Shown in pieces: positions 1-38,888 of a stretch of 38,888 nucleotides of DNA. A program made the translations under genes and the position numbers. How positions within the stretch are numbered: the first letter of the stretch is position 1; each line of letters starts with the position of its first letter. The notes under the pieces are model-generated. The model did no database searches. It was not told the DNA's origin and was given only the letters and a program-made list of their open reading frames with translations. Source of the stretch: Asterionella formosa (Eukaryota). The stretch covers positions 1-38,888 of the forward strand of contig NKIB01015011.1 in NCBI GenBank assembly GCA_002256025.1, in the 5' to 3' direction.

Positions 1-1231
1 GTTGCTGCATTTGAACCCCTAGGCAAAAATTAAAATATTGCTTAGGGTTGCGAAAAATCCCTGGAATTAAGAATTTAATTAGCTATTTTTGAATGACGTG
101 ATTCCATTTGAAATATTTGAATCAGTGGAAATTTGCGAATACGTACATAGATTCCTTGTCAAAATCGCTAAATATATATATTGACACTCTAAGTCGCTGA
201 ATGTATATATATGCTAAAAATACGATCAACATGTATGCATGGACACTCTATACTCCGATTAACTTTTTTATGTAATATGCATTGAATCCGTTCGACACAT
301 TCAAATCGTTTAATATATACATATATATATATATATTTAGGTTCTACATCGCTTCATGTGCATACACCAGTACTACAATGTATTCTCCTATCGACGAATA
401 TGGGTCATGTATACGACCCGGCGGCTTGGCAAATATTTAAAAGTGCACCCAAGGAGCGGTACGCGTACCGGTATGTCCAATGATGATCATCTACTGGTAC
501 CCGTCGTGAATATAGCACCGGACTGTCAGTACACCCAAGAATATGTTACATGTTAATCCAATGTGGCCAGCGTGGGTTTGCACGACCTCGCAAACCAGGC
601 CAATCAAACAGAGGAATGTACTTCATGCTCACCAATCACCATATTATGTATGTGGAAGCGGGTACTTACAATGGAATTTTTCGGACAGGAGATTTTAGGA
701 CTAAAAATTCCGGCACACGACTGCCATTCCAATGATGACGTTTCGGCACTTAATAATTCTGATTCCGATATTTTGGCGACCGTAGAAAAGGCCGATTTTG
801 TCGAGTTTTTGGACGACGATAGCTAAACGTTGGCTGGGTCTGACGGCGATTTAGATACATAGGTAACTTTCAAATAGCACCAGATATATAACTTCTGGCG
901 AGAAACTGCAGAAAGGAACTTCGGTTTTTTTACTATGCCAAATAAACAGATTTCCCCCGAAATTTCGAGTCTTTTTAGCATAGCTAAAAAACCGAAGTTC
1001 CTTTCTGCAGTTTCTGACCAGATCCTATATACTGACGATATATAGAGTGAACCTACACCCCTACTTTGTCCGAAGACAGTATTTAAGCATATGGAAAGGG
1101 TGTCTATTGGTGAAAGCTCCGTTGAGCGTTATACATTTTTAATTTACACTTGTAAAGTACGTGTTTGATTAGTCTGACTGAATATTATTTTATTAACCCT
1201 ACCTCGAGCTAGGGGTTCAAATGCAGCAACC
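1..1231. mobile_element. Non-autonomous DNA transposon, family A copy 1 (Kolobok-like: TTAA target, GG..CC ends)
   Basis: GTTGCTGCATTTGAACCCCTAG (1-22) is the exact reverse complement of CTAGGGGTTCAAATGCAGCAAC (1209-1230), followed by C and TTAA (1232-1235). The left end is clipped by the window. No transposase ORF. Confidence 0.8.
901..1015. repeat. Perfect 30-bp internal inverted repeat of family A
   Basis: AGAAACTGCAGAAAGGAACTTCGGTTTTTT (901-930) pairs with 986-1015 across a 55-bp spacer. The homologous IR lies at about 3722-3836 in copy 2. Confidence 0.9.
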
Positions 1232-2861: not shown

Positions 2862-5299
2862 GGTTCCTGGATTTCAACCCTAGGTTAGAGGTAGGGTTAA
2901 AAATTTAATATTGATGCATCAAACACGCACTTTTCACGTGTAAAATAAAAATGTATATCGCTACCACTCGGAGTTTTTACCATTGGACACCCTTTCCATA
3001 TGCTCAGATACAGTCATTGATCGAAGTAGGGCAATGGCTGGATGCAATTTTTGGGGCACCGGGTAGACCCGCCCAGTAGGCCTAGTATTAGCATAAATCC
3101 TAAACCTGTGGTATATAATATTTGCGCCTGGATTGGCATGTTATTATCACATCCACCATGTTGTTCTTATTCTGTTGTTTTACTCAACAATAGAACATTC
3201 TCCCGTGCCGCTTCAAATAGATTTCTTTCCTCCATGAGTAGCGCTACTATTAAACACCGGAAGCGGCACAGGATGACACAATTTGCTTTATATATGAACT
3301 ATTTTTTGTTGGGCAAGGAGATCCACGCCTACATGACCATTGGTTTCACACTCTTGAGCTTGATACTGGGCAAGCTGGAGTTGAAACTGTATAGGAATGT
3401 CTCAAATAAGATCATATAGTAGTTGCAATGAAGATACAACAACGATTTCACACCCATCGCTGCACAATGGACTTCGATTTCATGTTCGCCATGAATGAAT
3501 GCAACGACAACAACAAGGAGATTGCGGATTCATGTGTATATAAACTTTATGCATATGTGTGTCATTTATATAGAACATTTTACTTAAGCTAAAATCATGT
3601 TGTGCTGGTAGCTAGAATTATTTTGTACTGGTAGCTATGATGGTTACCCAATGTAGTTTCATGATGGATCCAGCCATATGATATGCCAACTCAATATAAT
3701 GTCAGTATATAGGATCTGGCCAGAAACTGCAGAAAGAAACTTCGGTTTCTTAACTATGCTGAAAATAGTGGATTTTACCGGGCCAACTCATTTGTTTGGC
3801 CTATTAAAAAAACCGAAATTCCTTTCTGCAGTTTCTCGCCGAAAGTTAACTTCTGGGGATATATGAAGATTACCAACATACTCAATCCTTCTTCAATTTG
3901 TGCCAAAGATGAGCTATCGTTGTCCAAAATTCAACAAAATCGGCCTTTTTAACAGTCTCCAAAATGTCGGAATCAGAATCACTTATCGCCGAAACATCAT
4001 CATCGGAATGTTGGTCTTGTGCTAAACATTTTAGTCGTAAAATCTCCAGTACAAAAAGTTCCATTACGACGAGGGTTCGCTGCATTATTCATATTCTGAT
4101 TGGTTATACTTACATCGGTTCGATTGGACCGGTTTGCAAGGTTTTGAAATACCACGCCGGCCACACTGGATGCACATGCAACATTTTCTTGGGTGTTGGC
4201 GGATGCGTATATCCACTACTACCTGGTACCACCTTGGAGAGAGTTGGAGTAATGAGTACCGGGTGGTCGGAGTGCCTGGTACTCCTCCCTCTGGTTGAAA
4301 ATAATTGCGGCAATTGTTAAGATTTCTCCGGCTCAATTTTGGTTCCTACGATTTTTTCTGGCTCAATTGCCCTAATGTGCGCAATCGCATAAGCTACAGA
4401 TCCATTTATAATATATATAGCAAATTTAAAACTGGCAAATACATATCAAAAAAAAGTTTTTGGGCTTTTTCGATTTTCACTTGTGGCTATCTCGAGCAAA
4501 ATGCGGATGCATGAGGACCCGTGGTCAATGTAAGTGCAATAACTGTAGAAAGCATACGAAAAGACAGCTACTGTGTTCATGGTATAATTATGATAGTGGC
4601 TCGTTCTATTTGGTTTCCTGCAAATATTTGAGTGGCCGGCCAATATAAAACGGCATTTGGCGATATGCATATGTAAATAATTAATAGATGTATGTTAAAT
4701 TGGTTTCGAATAGTTTATTTAGATGCTATTAATTTAATTACAGAAACAGAGGGTATGTTCACGTCTATGTACCTAATAACAAACGCATTTTTTCGAGTAA
4801 GCCGATCCTCACGACGAAAGATGGTATGTTGGCTACATAATCCTTCATATGCGAACAGTAAAGACACCAGTGGTGCCGGCGATTCGACGCAATTATTTTC
4901 AACCAGAGGGGGAGTACCAGGTACCGGTAGCTGATTTTTGGTTATACCGATAGCAATGTAGTAGTATGCGTACCGGTACATTACTAGAATGCATTTTCAA
5001 ATATTTTTCCGAGCCGCCGGGTTGTAAGTATGACACATATTTGTTGATCGGAGTATACTACTGGTCGAGTAGATATATATATATATATATATACATTTAG
5101 CGATGACAAATCTCTCTATATATATTTAGGGCATTTGAGTAGTAATCTATGAAAGTACACGAAAATTTCCACTGATTTGAATATTTCAAACGGAATCATC
5201 GATATTCAAAATTAGCGCATAAAAGTTCTTAGTTACAGGGAATTTCGGCAACCCTAAGCAATATTTTAATTTTTCCCGTAGGTTTAAAATGCAGCAGCC
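2862..5299. mobile_element. Non-autonomous DNA transposon, family A copy 2 (Kolobok-like), inverted relative to copy 1
   Basis: TTAA at 2858-2861 and 5300-5303. Imperfect TIRs GGTTCCTGGATTTCAACCCTAG / GTAGGTTTAAAATGCAGCAGCC. Both ends and about 3690-4160 are reverse-complement homologs of copy 1. It carries extra segments at about 3060-3680 and 4275-4921. Confidence 0.8.
4275..4921. mobile_element. Family B MITE-like element nested inside family A copy 2
   Basis: 33/34-bp inverted repeat: CCTGGTACTCCTCCCTCTGGTTGAAAATAATTGC (4275-4308) with 4889-4921. Absent from family A copy 1. Related fragments at 1236-1435, 2760-2857 and 5304-5530. Confidence 0.6.
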
Positions 5300-7990: not shown

Positions 7991-9613
7991 AGTGGTTTTT
8001 TCAGTTGTAAACCAGATAATTAAGTAAAATGAGCATTCGATGTGACAATCAGGCCACATACAATGAATTCTACACACGAGTGTACCACAGGACGGAATCA
8101 AGAATCCGTTCATATGCCATACTAGATGTCGAAATACGGCAACACATTATAAAATACACAATGCATGCATGAAATCGTGCATGGATTTGTACGGGTCACC
8201 CGGTATACATAGTACACTCAATGCACCATGTGACTAGCATTTTGAGTTAGTTAGCAGTACCAATGTCATGCTATTTCGAGGTGGTGTTGGATATGATCTC
8301 ACATCATGACAATAAATAGCAATTCGGATCCAAAAATTTTGGCCTGCTAAGATTTAACTGGGACCAAAAAGTACAAAATTTACTGTTTGATTTGCTAGGT
8401 AATTAGGTCATTTTGAGGAACAACTTGTTTGAACAAGGACCAGCATTGTTATGTTTTGAGTTGTTGGAGAAAATCTATGATCACAATGAATAATAATAAT
8501 TTATATGGTCTGGAAGCAAACAAGCAAAAACTAATTTGGGTAAGCTGACAGATCATTTTAACAATCAACTCTACTTGAGTCGAGCTTTGTCTGTCAAAGT
8601 ATCGCCATGACAAATAATAATTCACAGGGAAAGAGAAATTCAATTTGGATCCAGTGAGCATTCAATCGTAAACAAACAGTTCGGTCAGGTTTGTGTCGAC
8701 TCGTTCGAAAAGTGCGTACATACTGTTTGTTGTACATGATATTTTATCATCAAATGATGAAGACTAGTGATGATTCATATGGAAAGAAAAAATCGACTGG
8801 GGTCTACTGAGAGTTAGACCAAATGAAATGATGAGGTCTTCGTCGACTAGTTTTTACACAGCTTTGTTGTGTTGGATAATCAAGGGGGTCATATCATGAA
8901 AGCTAATGATTCATTTTAAAATTTAGACTCGGTTTGGGTCTGCTGAGAGTTCAACTCAATATAAAAATTCATTTTATTTTTGGTCGAATAATTTAACATG
9001 CGAATATGTTGTTTTGAGCACAATGAAAGACTTGCCTACAAATAGGGGAGTACAAATAGGCTATAAAACATACTATCCTTTTTGATTTGTAGGATAATTT
9101 AATCATCATGATGTCAATATTGCTCCCAAGCAATCCTTTTCTTGTGCTAACTCGCTTTGCTACATTTCTACTACGAGTTCGTATCAGAAGCTATGTACTA
9201 TATTCAGCTAGAGGGAGTCGATAGTGCTGGAGCAGCCTGGCGATTATACTGGATTGGAATGGAATGATGATTGGGGTTGTTTGGTGGGAGGAACGACTGT
9301 GGGCGGAAAATTACTTAGACACCCACAGTTCTCATCGAAAAGCAAGACGATTGCTAGGGTGGGGATTGCCTTCAGGAGACTCCACCGTACATATTTCGGT
9401 ACATGGTACCAAGTACCATCATTGTACAGCCATTTATCAAATACAGGTATTGTACACGATATCGAGTAGGCAGAGAGATACCGACCTCGATGAACAGACG
9501 ACGACCACCTTCCATGCACACCCAAGATGCAAGGCAGACGATGATCATGGAGGACGGCATAATGATTAGCAATACTGAACTAGTAGTTCACAAATTCTAG
9601 GTCATCGCTCATC

Positions 9614-11614: not shown

Positions 11615-11665
11615 TTTCCTATGTTGTAGACGGAACAGTCAAGCCAGTATCGTTTTCCTCCGATA

Positions 11666-12540
11666 GCAATCCCCACCCTATCTATCGTCTTGCTTTTCGA
11701 TGAGAACTGTGGGTGTCTAAGTAATTTTTGGTTTCTTTAAGTAATTATTATATTTTATTTAGGGGCAATATGGGGCACATTGGATTTTTCGGCAATTCCC
11801 GCTCCAGCTATCGTCTTGCCATTCGGGTACTTCTAAGTAATTTTTAGTCTCTAAGTAATTTCTTAAGTAATTTTTATTTAAGGGCAATATGGGGCAAATC
11901 GAATTTTTCGGCAATAAAATTGCAGATTTTAGCATGACAAACAAAATAACGGTAATATGCATAGAGATGGTACAACAAGCGTAAAACACACGAGAATGAT
12001 TGTAACATGCAACGTCAACGAAAATTGAACATGATGTTTGGAGCTGGAGCGGGAATTGCCTCAACAATACCCTTCTCGGCGGCTGCTTGCCTTCTCGTAT
12101 ACATGTGTACTTGGCTGGGATGGCACTCGTAGGGTGACCTTCTCGCAGTGCCGGGGGCACCACTCGTATGGTCAACCTACTCGTGCCACCCAGCCTCGAA
12201 CACATGTATACTCGCAGGCAAGAGACCACCTCGGGTGTGTATTGCCTTCAGCAGTCAATTTTAGGTTTGAGCAGGAGGGACCATCGAGCAATGTCAGGAG
12301 TAGAATTTTCATGGGAAAAAGTTTAGAGACATCAAAAATGCATGGACCACCGAATATAATGGTACCGGTATGCATGAAAAATAGTCACACAAGAATGATT
12401 GTAACAAGCATCGAAAATTCGACACGATGTTGTTAAGCAACCAAAGTATGAAACAGAAATCGAAAGGTAAGTCGTGAAAATGACAAGCAGGGAGTAGAGT
12501 AAAACGTGAAAAAGAAAATGGGTCAGAGGAAAAATCGTGT
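11666..12540. mobile_element. Family C repeat, copy 1 (GGCAAT-rich tandem subunits, inverted motif, central hairpin)
   Basis: About 125-bp tandem subunits at 11666 and 11791. GGCAATTCCCGCTCCAGCT (11791-11809) is inverted at 12042-12060. 11792-11957 is nearly identical to about 36053-36218, and 12385-12500 is homologous to about 36285-36410. Boundaries approximate; no TSD seen. Confidence 0.65.
12065..12244 (-). other. 180-nt imperfect hairpin with periodic symmetric 2x2 internal loops
   Basis: Stems CAATAC/GTATTG, CTTGCC/GGCAAG, GTATACATGTGT/ACACATGTATAC, GGCTGGG/CCCAGCC, TGGCAC/GTGCCA, GTAGG/CCTAC, TGACC/GGTCA and GTGCC/GGCAC, punctuated by CTCG opposite CTCG. Confidence 0.85.
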
Positions 12541-13561: not shown

Positions 13562-13895
13562 GTAGTAAGCGAGCAACAGAACACCATATGTTCATGACAG
13601 TTGCTACTGCAGTGGGACAGTAAATCATCTTAGGTTTAGGATGGTATGATCATAAAATTGAAAAAGGATAGTCGGAGTAGTGAGCACGCAACAGAACACC
13701 ATATGTTCATGACTGCTGCTACTGCAGCAGGACAGTAAATTATCATAGTTTCAGGATCATATGATTGTAAAATTGAAAGAGAGTAGTCGGAGTAGTAAGC
13801 GAGCAACAGAACACCATATGTTCATGACTGCTGCTACTGCAGTGGGACAGTAAATCATCACATTTTTAGGATTGTATAATTGTATAATTGAAAAC
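13562..13895. repeat. Tandem repeat, about 3 x 115 bp
   Basis: Units start at 13562, 13677 and 13792 and share GCAACAGAACACCATATGTTCATGAC...TGCTACTGCAG..GGACAGTAAAT. Confidence 0.95.
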
Positions 13896-16580: not shown

Positions 16581-17394
16581 CAAGCAAATGACAATACGGA
16601 TATCAAATATTTCCTATGAGCAAACAGCAATGAAAAGAGCCACTTGCTTTCGCTCTCTTGATGGTATTAAAGATGCAGACAAGTTCAATAGTAAATACAA
16701 GTACAGCATGCCAAATGCAGAAACGAGCGACATGAAAAAGAAATTGTAATCAGAATCATTCTATAACTATAGGTATGTGGACAGTAGTCTGTTACATTTT
16801 CGTATCTCCTTCTATGCTGAATCTCAATAGTAGATGTAGTATTATTTGAGAATTTAAAAAGTCAACAAGAACAAGTAGAATGTGTTTGTTCACGGGTTGA
16901 TTGGCAAGATTGTAATGCTGGTGGTCGACGAAACGGATTCACAATGTGCACTGTGTGCGGAACCATTACGAGTTCGAATGATTTCTTCTCTGTAAACTCT
17001 TAATTGAATGATTATGAACAAAGGTTCACTGCACATGACAATTACTCAAAGATATAATTATCAAATGACCAACAATTGAAGACGTTGTTATCGGAAACAA
17101 TCATTCCACTTGTCATCGCTAGAATTTCGTTGTTGTTGCAAAAATCAGAGTGATGACGGATGGAAATGACGAGCCAAATTACATTACTTAAGCTGGCACA
17201 TTATCCTACCAAGAAATTCGAATACAGGAATCTAATAGAAACAATACATATAATAATTAAATATATGTAGTCAAAAGGGTTACTATTTAAATTACAAGGG
17301 CATTTATCAAAATTATTAGATGATATAACGAAAAATTATGATCAGATGATCATACTAATCTTATGATGCATCATGGAAATATGATAGTTTTTAT

Positions 17395-20300
17395 TTGCAG
17401 ACGGACCTTTCAGTCACGGGGTCTACAATGACAGTTAAAAAAGGTCGCGGAGGACATATTTCATTTAACAGAGAGACCAATGGAGTTCTCTATTATTTTG
17501 AAGCAAGTCGCGCGAGTTATGCCGATGTCGTATCCATGGCTATTGCCCCATTGTCCCAGGGGGCCGATAGTACCAAAAACTTGTCTACAAACACCCATAC
17601 AGTTATGAGTGGGGAGGACAAAATGAAGTCACAGGACATCAACGAGGCACACGATATCTACGGGCATATTGGGGAAGCCGCACTACGTGCTACGTTCAAA
17701 GCACTGAAGATAGAACTTACTGGTACCCTCCAGTCCTGTGACGGATGCTCTAAGGCAAAGACGAAAGCAAAGGCGGTTTCAAAAGTGTCGACTGTACAGG
17801 CTGTACTACCCGGTGAACGGATTTTTGTGGACACTTCAGGGCTGTACAGAAAGTCCATTGTGGGAAGCAATTACTGGATACTTGTGGTTGATCAATTCTT
17901 TGGAAAGTCATGGAGCTTTTTTGTTAAGAAGAAGAGTTTACTATCCAAAATTGTGGACGAGCTACTCATCAAGCTATTTGCAGCAAAATATGTCATCAAG
18001 TATCTACGATGTGATAATGCAGGTGAAAATCTCGAAAATTTGTCATCTGTATGCACCAAGCATGGTATTCAGATTGAATACATGGCACCAAATACACCTC
18101 AGCAGAACAGTGTTGTTGAGCGCAAGTTTGTCACCATATGTGATAGAAGCTGTGCTGCTATGATCAATGCAAAGCTAAATGATGAGTTTCAAGGACTTCT
18201 TTGGGCAGAATGTGCCAACACAATGACTCGAGTGACAAATGTGGTTTCGAATTCAAGAAATATCAAGTGTTCTGATTGGCTATGGTATGGGAAACAACCT
18301 ACAATCTATGAACATTTGATCCAATTTGGACGAATTGGATATGTCACCATAAGAACTCCTGTGAATAAGCTTGATGATAAAGCAATTAAATGTGTCATGA
18401 TTGGATACTCTGAAAACCACTCAGGTGATACCTACCGACTCTTTAACCCTATAACCAAGAAGGTGATTCAGAGCCGTGATGTAAAATGGATAGAATGGCA
18501 TGGAGAAACGAAACCTACCGATGATCTGACCATGTTCAAGACTGGGATTGATGAAATTGAGTTTGAGGAGGAACTTGACCAACCTGTTGCACCAGCTCCG
18601 ACTGTCATCCCAGATGATGAGACTGGATCACTTTCGACTCTTAATGACTAGCAGGTCTCTGAAGCAGGGAGGAATGAAGCTTCAAATACTTTAAAACCTG
18701 CTATTACAAGAGCTGAACGAGAGCTCAAGAAACTTGGTCATGAAACTGGTGCTCCAACGATGTCTGCACTACGTTCTGGAAGATTGCATACTATTGTAGA
18801 TGATGATCATCATCTGGATTCTAAGCCTACTTCATCCATGGAGGTTCATTACATCTACAGCTCTACACTTGCATCAGATCCAGGTGAACCCAAGACCTAC
18901 AGTGCGGCACTGAAAGCAGATGACAGAGAAAATGGATTCCAGCAATCAAAAGTGACATTAATAATTTTATAAAACGAAAAGTCTGGTCAAAATTCCCACG
19001 ATCAGAATTGCATGGACGCAAACCACTTGGGAGTCGATGGGTCTTCAAGAAAAAGAAGGAACAAGACTTGACTACACGCTACAAGGCACATGTGGTCGTC
19101 AAGGGATATGTCCAAATCCCCTGTGTCGATTTTACCGACTCGTTTGCACCTGTGGCTACAGATACAAGTATCAGAGTTGTCTTTGCAATCACCATGCACA
19201 AGAAGACATGGACTTTGGAGGTCATTGATGTCAAAACATCCTTTCTTGTTGAGTTTGGCTTTGACGACAACAAGGTTGTCTCAGAATATTGTATTCTTCT
19301 AAGTAAAGCCATGTATGGAACGGTGCAGGCTGCACGACAGTGGTACAAGAAACTTGTGGAGCGTCTGATTCTCATTGGAATGAAACAAAGCAAAGTGGAT
19401 CCATGCATTTTCTTCTTGAAACGTAATTTGAAATTGGTTCTAATTGTTTGTATCTATGTTGATGACTGCATTGTTGCTGGAGAACAAGCCGATTTTGACT
19501 GGCTTAAGGCTGAAGCCAAGAAGCTTTTCACCATAAAGGAACTCGGACCAATCAAGAAACATTTAGGAGTTTGGTATGACTGGGGAGAGGATGCTGATGG
19601 AAGATTTCTTGAAACTACTATGGAGGATTTCGTTGAAGGAATGTTCGAAGATTATAAGAATCTCTTTGGAGGTTATCCCGCAATTGCACCAACTCCCGGA
19701 TTGCCAGGTACAAGTTTGTCCAAGAATGATGCCCAAACTGTTCTACATAGTGAATACAGATCCATGGTTGGAAAAATCGTATACTTTGTAAACAAGATAT
19801 CTCCAATTTGTGCCAATGCATGTCAAGAATTGTCTCAGCATCTGGAGAATCCAGGAGAGGCTCATTGGAAGGCAGTTGAACGTCTGTTGGGATTCTTATA
19901 TGCAGACAAGAAACATCGGCGTAGTATGAAGATGCGAACCCCAAAAGAAATGCGCCCAATGGATGTTGTTGACAGTGCATTTGCAATTAACCCTGATACT
20001 CGCAAAAGTACAAGTGCATATCTCGGAACTATTGGAGCACACTCCTTGGTGACTTGGTCATCCAAAGGACAAAACATTGTAACAACATCAAGCACGGAAG
20101 CCGAGTATGTCAGCCTAAGCGACGGTGTCAAGGATACAATATTTGTTACAAATCTATTGGATGAGGTCTGCCTACTATGTGGAACTGCCAGCAATAATTG
20201 CTGAGGATAACACTGGAGCGATTTTCCTAAGCAAAAACAAACAAGTTGGATCAAGGACAAAGCATATTGATGTCAGATATCATTTTATACGTGAGAAGAC

Positions 20301-28493: not shown

Positions 28494-29052
28494 TTAAGCC
28501 AAAATGATGCCAAGGGCAAGCGCCATGTCCTTGTTGACTTCGATGGCAATCTGAGCTTCAGCAGCCGCAATGCTTCCGGATTCAGCTGAGTTGAATTGAG
28601 CCTTGGCAGCTTCATAGTTACTGGCGATAACTGCGGCATCAAGATTTTCCAACTTGACAGCTTCTGGGCAAGAAATCTCCTGCGAGCAATAGAATTGGTG
28701 AGATTGGAATACGGCAATGGCTCATTTAGTGTATTCCAGGACTTACAGTGTGCGAGTCCGGATGAGTAAATGCAAAGCCCCCGGCAATAAAGTACTTTTC
28801 CGTTTCTCCGTCTCCATGGTCAATCTGAACGACTCCAGGAGCAAGCTCTGAGACAGTTGGAACGTGGTCAGCAGTGACTCCGTACTCTCCTTCCGTTCCA
28901 GGAAGGATCACAGATTCCACTTCAGCGGACTTGTAGATGGTGTCGTGCGGCAAAGCAAAGCTCAGGGTCATCTTGTTGGCAGCGACGGCTTCTGTCGACA
29001 TGAATCGCGCCACACTTCGGCGAATGATCGGAGCGGCGATTCTGGACAACAT
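28494..29052 (-). CDS. ATP5F1D: Mitochondrial ATP synthase F1 delta subunit, 163 aa, 2 exons (29052-28747, 28679-28494)
   Basis: Transit peptide MLSRIAAPIIRR; VILPGTEGEYGVTADHVP..ELAPGVV; YFIAGGFAF. A 67-bp GT-AG intron (28746-28680) leads to EISCPEAVKLENLD...AEAQIAIEV. Confidence 0.95.
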
Positions 29053-29529
29053 GGTGAAGCAAGACAGACAGGCAAGCAAATGCACTGGTGTGGAGTGTGG
29101 AGTATAGAGTGTACCGGTACTATGTATATTATTAAATACTAATTCCTGTACGACCAATAAATATATAGCCATACTGTGTACCGGTATGTGTAAGCGTGTA
29201 AGGTATATCTGTTTGTAGTACGAGGTAAATACTGTATGTAGAATGATTGATTGTTGATTTTTCTTACCAACAGCCACTATGTAGCTACCGGTATGTACTG
29301 CACAGTACATAGGAAGGAGTCCGGGAGTCTCCCGGTGGTCTAATGAATCGGAGCGAGATGTTCATTAACCCCAGACAATTTGATTCGTGACGTCAGCATC
29401 CACAGGGTCAACCCACGTAGAAATCAACGTCCTTGCGCTTTCCTTCTGGGATCTTCGTTCGCCGCTGCCGTTGTCGGAAGATGCGTTGCTTGTAGCGCAA
29501 ATTGTAGCAGGTGTATTTAACGTTTGACG
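29053..29529. promoter_or_regulatory. Bidirectional promoter region between ATP synthase delta and beta
   Basis: 477 bp between divergent start codons. Contains 3 x TACCGGTA, TGACGTCA (29388-29395) and several palindromes. Confidence 0.6.
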
Positions 29530-31337
<1,808 letters not shown>

Positions 31338-36052: not shown

Positions 36053-37800
36053 GCAATTCCCGCTCCAGCTATCGTCTTGCCATTCAGGTACTTCTAAGTA
36101 ATTTTTAGGCTCTAAGTAATTTCTTAAGTAATTTATATTTTAAGGGCAATATGGGGCACATCGAATTTTTCGGCAATAAAATTGCCGATTTTAGCAAGAC
36201 AGCCAAAATAACGGTAAATGTTGGTTTTTTCAATTGGTCAAAGAACACCACGGAGAAGAGAAAATTTGTGACCATAAAAAAAATCACACAAAAATGATTG
36301 TGACATGCGAATGTCGAAAATTGCGCATCATGTTTCTTTTTGCAACCAAAGTATGATTCATCAACAACAAAGGTAAGCAACGAGAAGATTGTTCAAGTAG
36401 GGAGAGAGCAAAAAAGAGAGAAGGAAAGGAATATAGATTGGGTGAGAAGATCGTTAACAAAATATATGTTTAAAACTTCAATGTCACAAAAAACTTACAC
36501 TCAGATTTTCCGTCATGTAATCACAGGCAGAAAATGAATTTTTCAATATGAAGGAGAAGTTGGGGTAATTGTATGTGCCGCTGGAAGTTGGTGATGTTGT
36601 GGTGGATGGGTGGATGGGTGGATGAGTGGGTGCTGATGATGGAGTTGGCTGGTGGTGGTAGTAGACCGGTGCTGGTTGACTGCTGGCTGGAGGCGGCATA
36701 TGATAGTATCCATGAGGAGGAGGAACAGGAGGAGGAGCATGGGAGTAGTAAATTTGTTGTGGTGGCGCCAGTGGAGGATGAAAATATGGCTGCTTGCACT
36801 TTGCGCTTAGTAGTATTTGTCACTGCTCTTTGAGAGAAACGACGGCTTCTAGTTCCCGTTGTCATTGTAGAATAATCAGTATAATAGAATTGTAATACGA
36901 TTGAATTAAAACAGAGGAACTATGTATATTAGAGTATCATAAAAAGCACCCTCAAACATGCTTCCGAGACATCATATCTGATCTTCACATAGAAAACATA
37001 CTAAAAAATAAATTTTTGAATAATAAGTGAACATAATGTCTGAAAATAGCACCAAAAATGTGACAACGATGGCGCGAAATTGACTTCTTACCCGCGCAAC
37101 CCATGAATCTTGTTCCCCAACAGTCCAATCAACGATATTATCGATGAGCAATCATCCGATTCGTCAGTATCATCCAACAGATCAGATGATGAATAATGAA
37201 ACTTTTTGAGATCAATTGAATTGGGAACAATGATTTTGGCACCACTGCGACGAAGTAGGTTTGATGTCACAACATGAATTCCACAAGAAGACAAGTCGTC
37301 CAACAACCAACCACATCCGTTTGAAGATGAATCGCTACTAGAGTCATCAAGGAACACATTTTGCTTCAAATGAGGCATGATGGTGAATGATTTTCTGTGT
37401 CAAAGCTGTATTTCCGCTCTCATATTTTAGGAAACAAACAAAATCGATATATACAACAGATTGGTGAATACTGGCTGGATATATTATAATCAAATCTGTA
37501 TAATATATAAAATGGTTTCCTTATGTACTAGACCCCTTGCCGATTTCAGCAATCCCAGGGCTGGAAAACAGAGGGGCAATCGGCATCAGTTGTCTTGCCA
37601 AAATGCTAACATATGAAATATTGAAAATATATTTTAATGATGGGCAATATCAGACCTTTGGCAATTTTCGAGGTGAAGATAGGAAATAAACCAAAATTTT
37701 TTTATATGATTGGCAATAGTAGGCTAAAATTGACATTTATGCTAAATTTGTGGGCAGTAGGTAAGCGAATGACGCGACGATAGCTAGAGCGGGAATTGCC
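36053..37800. mobile_element. Family C repeat, copy 2, bounded by a 24-bp inverted motif
   Basis: GCAATTCCCGCTCCAGCTATCGTC (36053-36076) versus GACGATAGCTAGAGCGGGAATTGC (37776-37799), one mismatch. The left part is homologous to 11792-12500. Confidence 0.65.
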
Positions 37801-38013
37801 TCAACAATACACGCCCGAGGTGGTCTCTTGCCTGCGAGTATACATGTGTTCGAGGCTGGGTGGCGCGAGTAGGTTGACCGTACGAGTGGCGCCCCCATAA
37901 ATGTCAATTTTAGCCTACTATTGCCCATCATACAAAATATATTTTGTATATTTCCTATCTTCACCTCGAAAATTGCCAAAGGTCCGATATTGCCCATCAT
38001 TAAAATATATTTT
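37624..38013. repeat. About 118-bp inverted repeat enclosing a flipped half-hairpin
   Basis: 37624-37741 is the near-exact reverse complement of 37896-38013. The spacer contains 37805-37896, which equals the reverse complement of 12153-12244 at 88/92 positions. Confidence 0.9.
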
Positions 38014-38888
38014 GATTCACCTCGTTTTTGTTCGTCTCCTGAAAAGTGGACTCCGGCAATTCACCTTTCACCATGCCAATCGTCGTCCATCATGACCGGT
38101 TTGAAGCGAAATCAGTTCCGCGATGACGCCAGTAGCAACTCTTTGCCTAACGGATGCGGTTGATTGTTGGATTGCTTGTCTTCTCGAGGTATTCATGTAG
38201 TCGCATCGTCCATATTTCGTCGGACGAACGATGATATCGATACATCTGATGTTGGTGGCAAATTTTTGCTCCGGTCATGTATGTAATGATGCTTAACGGA
38301 TATTCTACCGGTACTGGCAGTCATCTACCGGTAGTCAACATACGTACGTGGTACTAAAAACAACCATGCATGGTCTAAGCTATACTTTAACGCTTACTTT
38401 GAACACGTTATAATATTATCTCTGTAGACTCGGTATTATTTTTACGAGACCTGAAATGTTGAATTATATGGTTGACATATTCATTAATTTTACGTACCGT
38501 ATGCCCGATTTCGTCCTCACAAATATAGTTCTCACTCTATCTTGCCTGCCTTTGCTCTATTCGGGCTTGCAATAGGCAACGTTCGTCTTTCTTTTATCCC
38601 ATAGTCTGCTGCTTGTTATGCTAGCTAGTTAGAGCGGATCGGTGAGTACAACAGTGAAATACTGAATGTGGATTGTAGATCCTATTTATCGACTTTCCGA
38701 TTTGATTGCTTCCGTGGTTTGTTTTGATCGCTTCCATCGTTGTTTGTCGCTACGCACTGTCGTTTTGTTTCGATTGTACATATCTACATAAGAACCAATG
38801 CATTTATCAATGACTACTCATTGAAGATGTGGTATTGTGCCGTTGTTGATCGTATTTGTTGATTTGTATAGTCGTTGACAATGATGTC

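Follow-up and report, generated by a model that had tools for sequence, protein, structure and literature searches.

A long hairpin with oriented tandem mismatches at the 3' end of a high-copy transposon family with HLE2-like ends

The DNA at 12065–12244 of the window, which is the whole 38,888 nt stretch that was analysed, forms a long hairpin that belongs to a repeat family, is situated at the end of the repeat unit and contains oriented mismatches that are the majority state in that family. It is considered moderately likely that this hairpin forms the palindromic 3' terminus of a non-autonomous DNA transposon with HLE2-like ends and a very high copy number, and that it serves as a strand-discriminating single-stranded DNA (ssDNA) signal, the class, the ssDNA form and the role being the conditional parts of this reading.

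The 180 nt of this region fold as a single hairpin of approximately 85 bp, centred on 12154, on both strands. The RNA minimum free energy (MFE) of 12055–12254 is -95.0 kcal/mol for the + strand (z -7.9) and -114.3 kcal/mol for the - strand (z -11.2), with none of 200 shuffles folding as well on either strand. The left arm (12065–12152, + strand) carries CTCG-type sites starting at 12075, 12094, 12110, 12126 and 12142, that at 12110 being CTTG here and CTCG in the family. The right arm (12156–12244, + strand) carries CTCG at 12163, 12180, 12195, 12211 and 12230, and is 95.7% identical, in inverse orientation, to 37805–37896. Between the arms lies an apical loop, 12153–12155, which is GGG on the + strand and caps a 5 bp stem formed by 12148–12152 with 12156–12160. 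There are therefore nine CTCG and one CTTG on the + strand of 12065–12244, with no CGAG on this strand of the same interval. Going by the remainder of the window, 0.35 CTCG would be expected in 180 nt (Poisson P(>=9) = 1.5e-10), and the richest other 180 nt windows contain at most 3. An earlier note made from the letters had described these sites, their opposition and the long hairpin, all of which were confirmed by this motif count and by the folding of both strands.

In the fold, the sites face each other in the pairs 12075/12230, 12094/12211, 12110/12195, 12126/12180 and 12142/12163. On the - strand this generates 2x2 loops that are CGAG/CGAG in four places and CGAG/CAAG in the fifth in the window copy, as the earlier note had read them. 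The tandem U.G/G.U wobble that it placed next to the apical stem is likewise supported, on the - strand only, by hand pairing of the letters and the dot-bracket structure, the fold output itself listing no wobbles. Several CTCG sites have a neighbouring 1x1 mismatch, so that the motif extends beyond four letters, and CCTTCTCG is present three times in the left arm. The ten CTCG-type sites are direct repeats spaced by about 15–21 bp, or roughly 1.5 helical turns. The spacers between them share no common repeat, except for one 12 nt pair (D17) that contains a CTCG core, which means that the sites did not arise by duplication of a single unit.

Since the CTCG sites are oriented alike in both arms and are exactly opposed in the fold, the two DNA strands form chemically different hairpins. 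In the predicted fold, the + strand has T.C/C.T bubbles and the - strand pairs almost without interruption, its helix containing five tandem G.A steps in C-GA-G context as well as G.T wobbles. C-GA-G is the classical and optimal context for tandem sheared G.A pairs in both RNA and DNA, based on thermodynamic and NMR literature. Among the transversion-type oppositions of the window copy, 14 of 16 are pyrimidine.pyrimidine on the + strand and hence purine.purine on the - strand (binomial P 0.004). The RNA MFE of the hairpin is -94.2 kcal/mol for the + strand versus -108.0 kcal/mol for the - strand in the window copy, and -83.1 versus -106.3 kcal/mol in L006, a majority-like metagenome copy. The absolute value of the L006 difference, 23.2 kcal/mol, is matched by 3.3% of 300 palindromes with 22 random substitutions, in support of the strand asymmetry that had been proposed. 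When the L006 hairpin is extended to include both inverted repeats (281 nt) and folded with DNA parameters, the values are -71.1 for the + strand and -77.7 for the - strand. By nearest-neighbour tables, each CGAG/CGAG loop is better than CUCG/CUCG by 2.1 kcal/mol for RNA and by 0.4 kcal/mol for DNA; the DNA table probably underestimates the stability of tandem G.A in C-GA-G context.

The oriented mismatches are the majority sequence of the repeat family. Two variants touch a CTCG core among 40 of the 75 variant rows. One of these, 12112 T>C, predominates in each of the four runs aligned and restores CTCG at the lone deviant site, and the other, 12211 C>A, is seen in one X11 contig (about 37% of the depth there) and in five X1 contigs (about 0.1% of the depth). 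The remaining majority differences, at 12149, 12159, 12169, 12184 and 12236, are CpG in the family and TpG/CpA in the window copy. Positions 12149 and 12159 are pairing partners, C-G in the family and T-A in the window copy; both have changed, so that the pair is kept. All five loops are exact CGAG/CGAG in L006. Random decay of a palindrome, which the earlier note had argued against, is not the source of a pattern that is both the family majority and complete in L006. Neither perfect arms nor arms with randomly placed mismatches were the rule in the copies or the consensus, a compensatory change was seen, and the strands differed in folding energy.

Single sites can nevertheless be lost, as left-arm site 2 of L066 has been converted to a Watson-Crick version. 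Many copies have apex-centred deletions, and in L027 the deletion junction falls in the shared word TACTCG, which suggests that the direct cores can mediate slippage. Within the window copy alone, 5 of 7 non-motif CpGs are mutated versus 1 of 10 motif CpGs (Fisher P 0.035; one copy). The copies recovered are approximately 90–99% alike, and an X11 contig covering 12050–12231 differs from the window at 7 places, which equals the count of majority differences over that span. All copies are thus close relatives, so that descent explains their conservation, and selection is not proven by it alone.

The earlier proposal that the hairpin is carried by a repeat family was borne out by the number of contigs aligning to the 601 nt of 11850–12450 (at least 80% likeness), which was 23,606 in run X1, 59 in X13, 38 in X11 and 467 in X15. 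The X1 contigs fall into likeness classes of 3358, 8953, 9550 and 1745. Part of the stretch is contained in 20 of the 24 runs listed, and the runs with element-bearing contigs are labelled as algae, freshwater, lake and estuary metagenomes (four runs were aligned in detail), shares below 0.2 being left out of the claims on habitat and expression. Single X1 contigs have depths of approximately 800–950 and summed depths are 0.6–3.6 million, from which thousands of copies are estimated, although this is rough because a summed depth is not a copy number. The summed depth of internal region A in X1 is higher than that of the hairpin, indicating that there is no excess of 3' ends, which is a point against the main reading. 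The hairpin arms seem over-represented in the RNA-library run X15 relative to X1, a DNA run, but the parts of an element cannot be ranked by contig depth, and the library may contain DNA.

A pattern scan of metagenome contigs with a 17-mer identified at least 117 loci; of those listed, 113 were chance matches and four were members of the family. In L006 (95.3% identical) the hairpin is complete, in L066 its start is missing, in L027 its apex is deleted, and L015 retains the last 65 nt only. Full hairpins therefore number two in all, window copy 1 and L006, the others being partial. Longer patterns for the hairpin and for the terminal inverted repeat (TIR), two in all, gave no matches in genome contigs or in viral contigs. 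Both candidates from a protein search with the + frame of the hairpin (P0001 and P0002) match and are consistent with conserved sites, as far as translations can speak for nucleotides.

The window carries one complete short element, at approximately 11792–12255 and roughly 460 bp in length. Its order is a 5'-tip inverted repeat (TIR-L), a body with short tandem repeats (region A and a truncated segment B), a second inverted repeat (TIR-R), a 4 nt spacer, the stem-loop of about 180 nt and a tail of about 11 nt. TIR-L (11792–11825, + strand) has a conserved core, its first 22 nt, that starts GCAATTCCC. Exact copies of this core are present at 11792 (+), at 36053 (+) and inverted at 37778–37799, as well as in 3 of the 117 metagenome loci listed (L006, L027 and L066). 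The sequences upstream of 11792, 36053 and L006:657 are three different flanks, and the start of TIR-L is therefore the 5' terminus. Region A (11826–11986, + strand) contains three short tandem repeats of the CTAAGTAATTT type (approximately 11832–11877) and several GGCAAT motifs, and is 94.5% identical to 36053–36217 and 95.3% identical to L006:654–910. Segment B (11987–12041, + strand) is shortened here, a fuller version running on at 12386–12455 and 36285–36356, and family contigs that carry B beyond 12044 appear as loose ends.

TIR-R (12042–12060, + strand) is complementary to 11791–11809 at 19 of 19 positions and adjoins the hairpin upstream. The inverted repeats are perfect over 19 nt and 88% alike over about 35 nt, and in window copy 2, L006, L027 and L066 the hairpin comes after a TIR-R of up to 35 nt. 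In all five copies for which the DNA was read (these four and window copy 1), TIR-R is followed by the 4 nt spacer and the hairpin, and no junction that parts TIR-R from the hairpin was found among the loose ends listed. The tail (12245–12255, + strand) is the end of the element. Alignments of family contigs break at 12253 in all four runs, continuation past this point is heterogeneous (agreement of 0.37–0.52), and the window, L006, L027 and L015 each have a different, unrelated sequence after the tail. These varied flanks, together with the alignment breaks, indicate that the mobile unit ends 7–11 nt beyond the hairpin. With the hairpin so close to a transposon end and directly after the second inverted repeat, the suggestion that it is an independent non-coding RNA locus or a host replication origin is not upheld.

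In L006 there is a head-to-tail junction, in the order hairpin, tail and then TIR-L. An AGCAAT-like word of 6 nt is present at both ends of the element and in a single copy at the L006 junction. No target-site duplication was seen next to the inverted repeats in the window copies or in L006. In both of the junctions that are neither nested nor tandem (11663 and 36052), a T precedes the AGCAAT start, and the last letter of the tail is T in all four copies; each T may be the host's or the element's. No 5' hairpin was found at TIR-L in four 50 nt DNA folds (the + strand of three copies and the - strand of one), for which MFE was -1.1 to -3.1 kcal/mol and z was -0.03 to 1.5.

BLAST within the window identified related pieces at 36053–36413, 37327–38157 and 9307–9369. 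The second copy of the hairpin (37766–37896, + strand) is partial, consisting of TIR-R (37766–37800) and one arm to the apex. Here the + strand carries CGAG, so that the arm runs in the inverse ('flop') direction when compared with its flank, and the copy forms the middle of an inverted duplication whose arms are 37327–37750 and 37896–38157. The sequence at 36053–36413 (+ strand), with its core match at 36053, belongs to a further member of the family, of which it is the 5' end (TIR-L, A and B). If both ends are joined in one element, a long form of about 1.8 kb may begin here and end at 37896. By contrast with the mismatched hairpin, a separate palindromic repeat family in the window (885–1031 and 3718–3840) has near-perfect arms.

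The window itself is eukaryotic nuclear DNA with sparse long ORFs. Among these are a Copia-type region coding for reverse transcriptase and integrase, genes for mitochondrial ATP-synthase beta and delta/epsilon, an ATG16/WD40 gene and one that is bestrophin-like. A tRNA scan of the window found no tRNA genes. The search for a known RNA family that had been proposed gave nothing, with no Rfam 15 matches at the gathering threshold across the whole window and none at E<=1 for 11750–12350. ORFs that cover the hairpin (11762–12247 on the - strand and 12035–12433 on the + strand) were considered as a protein-coding reading and rejected, neither matching a Pfam family, and no protein family was found in or near the pieces of the element. 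Neither Rep/helicase nor any other transposase domain was found among eight ORFs of the window, or subsequently among 80 of its 115 stop-to-stop ORFs of at least 75 aa; the other 35 overlap the Copia, bestrophin, ATG16 and ATP-synthase regions.

The arrangement of the ends can be compared with that of HLE2 transposons. Helitron2 elements have an inverted repeat at the 5' tip and, near the 3' end, a second repeat followed by a stem-loop, with a 5' hairpin also listed (Bao and Jurka, PMC3627910). The same end arrangement is described for Helentrons and their DINE-1/HINE derivatives (Thomas and colleagues, PMC4067079), and the HLE2 end layout is summarised in the HELIANO paper (PMC11417382). For HLE2 elements, the inverted repeats are given as 8–16 nt (PMC3627910, PMC11417382), the left repeat is 0–2 bp from the 5' end and the right repeat is subterminal, and insertion is between T and T without target-site duplication. 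Set against these descriptions, the element is alike in having one inverted repeat at its 5' tip, the second one subterminal and then a stem-loop near the 3' end. Also alike are its head-to-tail junction and lack of a visible target-site duplication, and, with DINE-1 included, its non-coding body with central short tandem repeats and its very high copy number.

The element differs from the same descriptions in that its stem-loop, at about 180 nt, is some ten times the usual length, the literature placing the right repeat approximately 20–30 bp from the 3' end. Its inverted repeats are 19–35 nt rather than 8–16 nt, and it is without the 5' hairpin of Helitron2. In addition, there are five periodic, oriented tandem mismatches in the stem-loop, and the GGCAAT repeats in the body resemble the subterminal binding sites of cut-and-paste transposons. 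In view of these misfits, and with no transposase domain found in the window ORFs tested, the element is filed as HLE2-like in architecture, its ends suggesting but not proving that it belongs to the class. Nor does it have the make-up of a cut-and-paste MITE, in which a target-site duplication flanks the inverted repeats and no part of the element lies outside them: no such duplication was seen, and the right repeat was followed by the spacer and hairpin in 5 of 5 copies.

The mechanism is probably strand discrimination by a single-strand-acting enzyme. A perfect palindrome folds identically on both strands, and HUH enzymes and integron integrases read folded ssDNA strand-specifically via mismatches or bulges (PMC8266576). 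Their use of such irregularities for strand choice is what favours this mechanism here. The five oriented mismatch sites would give the + and - strands distinguishable hairpins, and a transposase acting on single strands could use this difference to distinguish the two strands at the end of the element, for termination or for cleavage beside the hairpin. The mismatches may also prevent the instability that a perfect inverted repeat would bring. The pattern is not accounted for by ordinary decay, given two transversions per site and five sites that all point one way, and the position at a transposon terminus favours the folded form as DNA over RNA. If the + strand is the transferred strand, as in the HLE2 orientation, the stable G.A hairpin sits on the other strand, which counts against this explanation.

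The strand-discriminating HLE2-like end must be weighed against several alternatives. One of these is that the same terminal palindrome belongs to a cut-and-paste, tyrosine-recombinase or circle-forming transposon instead of a rolling-circle relative of HLE2. This is possible, if doubtful. Inverted repeats of 19–35 nt and subterminal GGCAAT repeats fit such an element, as do the absence of a 5' hairpin, the lack of RepHel in the window ORFs that were tested, and the AGCAAT-like word, which is found at both ends and once at the L006 junction, as in a circle junction. Rolling-circle elements, however, typically show head-to-tail junctions too, the inverted repeats lack a visible flanking target-site duplication, and a hairpin that is outside the second repeat yet inside the mobile unit fits only HLE2-type ends among the classes considered. 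A reading that accepts the terminal palindrome but gives it no function, with the mismatches having arisen once in a master copy and been copied thousands of times, is unlikely. The family is young and homogeneous, most aligned contigs being 90–99% alike, apex-deleted copies such as L027 are common, and L066 has lost a site, all of which would be expected from an accident of this kind. Such an accident would have to place the same oriented 4-mer exactly opposed at five sites, between spacers without a shared repeat (bar the one 12 nt pair), each site being two transversions away from a perfect palindrome. All five would also have to point in the direction that gives C-GA-G, the optimal context for tandem sheared G.A, on the - strand. 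The lower decay of motif CpGs (1 of 10 versus 5 of 7; Fisher P 0.035, one copy) likewise argues against it.

Another reading is that transcription of the - strand yields a long hairpin RNA, which the tandem G.A and G.U pairs would stabilise and which would act as a protein scaffold or as the precursor of small RNAs. The RNA folding model does strongly favour the - strand, to which the wobbles beside the apex are confined by hand pairing, and contigs from RNA libraries contain the hairpin, X15 having 467 contigs, one of which is 1393 nt with the hairpin inside. Contigs carry no strand information, however, and RNA libraries can contain DNA. The polyA run X22, from the same sample as the best-matching run, contains next to none of the words, although this is no proof of absence, and Rfam was negative both at the gathering threshold and at E<=1. 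That thousands of copies keep the hairpin at the same place, a transposon terminus, points to a role as DNA, and an RNA function is improbable. Even less probable is that the hairpin never forms and that the ten CTCG are an array of oriented sites at which a transposase or a protein of the host binds ordinary double-strand DNA. Direct repeats about 15–21 bp apart, at roughly 1.5 helical turns, would suit such an array, and the body bears repeated short motifs (GGCAAT) as well, but the reverse-complement spacers and the exact opposition of the sites would be left unexplained. The recurrent apex-centred deletions are consistent with folding of, or slippage in, the palindrome in vivo, without proving it.

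The recognition of the Helitron-type 3' stem-loop and the choice of strand are poorly understood, and a family of thousands of copies with a giant stem-loop provides a ready-made test case. Its sites can be counted, are lost or flipped across copies, and can be related to the success of those copies. A strongly asymmetric hairpin that resembles an RNA gene can be a transposon end, which matters for the prediction of non-coding RNAs and miRNAs in protist, fungal and algal genomes. The presence of the element in algae, freshwater, lake and estuary runs means that it may also serve as a marker of its host.

Terminal hairpins of transposons are already well known. It is the length of this one, together with its five periodic, oriented, G.A-forming mismatches, that is without precedent in the literature searched, where no printed example of a terminal hairpin of about 180 nt with five oriented tandem mismatches was found (Repbase and subscription journals being outside that search) and nothing directly relevant on Helentrons in chytrids. 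The attC sites of integrons and the ends of IS608 are imperfect palindromes in which mismatches or bulges are required for activity and leave one strand alone as the substrate. The ends of IS200/IS605 elements, REP/TnpA-REP and attC are like the element in being imperfect palindromes with cleavage or a junction a few nt from the foot of the hairpin. They differ in being bacterial, 20–120 nt long and with one or two irregularities, whereas the element's hairpin is eukaryotic, about 180 nt long and has five identical symmetric 2x2 mismatches. An ambitious reading, which is rather unlikely, would make this eukaryotic hairpin with its five sheared G.A 'rungs' a strand-selective scaffold for an ssDNA transposase and a ten-fold enlarged counterpart of attC, IS608 and REP; the inverted ('flop') arm would then hint at hairpin-primed copying-through, as in parvoviral telomeres.

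The telomeres of parvoviruses and poxviruses are imperfect terminal palindromes with mismatched bubbles and two distinguishable orientations (flip/flop). The arm of window copy 2 (37801–37896), being inverse relative to its flank, resembles these rolling-hairpin ends. Flip and flop should, however, be approximately equal there, whereas the arms beside TIR-R are in one orientation in 4 of 5 copies and inverted in 1 of 5. No site variant reached 10% of the X1 depth among 40 of the 75 variant rows, although inverted arms, at about 78% likeness, may have been missed with the threshold of 80%. Copies of the element, unlike rolling-hairpin replicons, are chromosomal insertions. Long inverted arms, a non-coding sequence, high copy number and deletions at the apex are shared with foldback elements and palindromic MITEs, but the arms described here are not made of tandem subrepeats, and the palindrome is at one end of the element instead of making up the whole of it.

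The hairpin apex is absent from many copies of the family. At L027, a metagenome locus holding one such copy, the junction of the apex deletion (337–360) falls within a 6-nt word common to two CTCG sites, therefore the direct CTCG cores appear to promote slippage deletions.

The 3' region of the element is duplicated in inverted orientation at 37327–38157 of the window, around the second, partial copy. The arms of this duplication, 37327–37750 and 37896–38157, have 93% complementarity over 118 nt. Its centre is one single hairpin arm, which stops precisely at the hairpin apex and has the inverse ('flop') orientation, with CGAG on the + strand, relative to the inverted repeat adjoining that arm. 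This inverted duplication looks like a product of palindrome-tip breakage or of a template switch. An older partial copy, 76% identical to the 5' region of the element, occupies 11663–11796 and immediately precedes the complete short element. The end of this copy is one of the GGCAAT motifs of the family, which suggests either nested insertion at these motifs or recombination between them.

Other features of the window include a perfect 23-nt inverted repeat (4287–4309 and 4888–4910, separated by 578 nt), which may represent the ends of another small transposon, and a 115-nt unit tandemly repeated in 2.9 copies with 85% matches (13562–13894). An RVT_2 reverse transcriptase and an integrase SH3-like domain mark a Copia-type retroelement at 17359–20201, which is split across at least two frames. 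Divergently arranged genes for ATP-synthase delta/epsilon-like and beta subunits are located at 28729–31334, where the GC content of the window is highest (0.49–0.53, as compared with ~0.39 elsewhere).

Another family of palindromic repeats, unrelated to the mismatched hairpin, is found in two copies at 885–1031 and 3718–3840, in mutually opposite orientation. The family is probably a MITE. The first copy has an RNA MFE of -85.9 (z -14.5). The arms in this family, 42–63 nt in length, are near-perfect, and it serves as a contrast case for the hairpin, which is mismatched at its facing CTCG sites.
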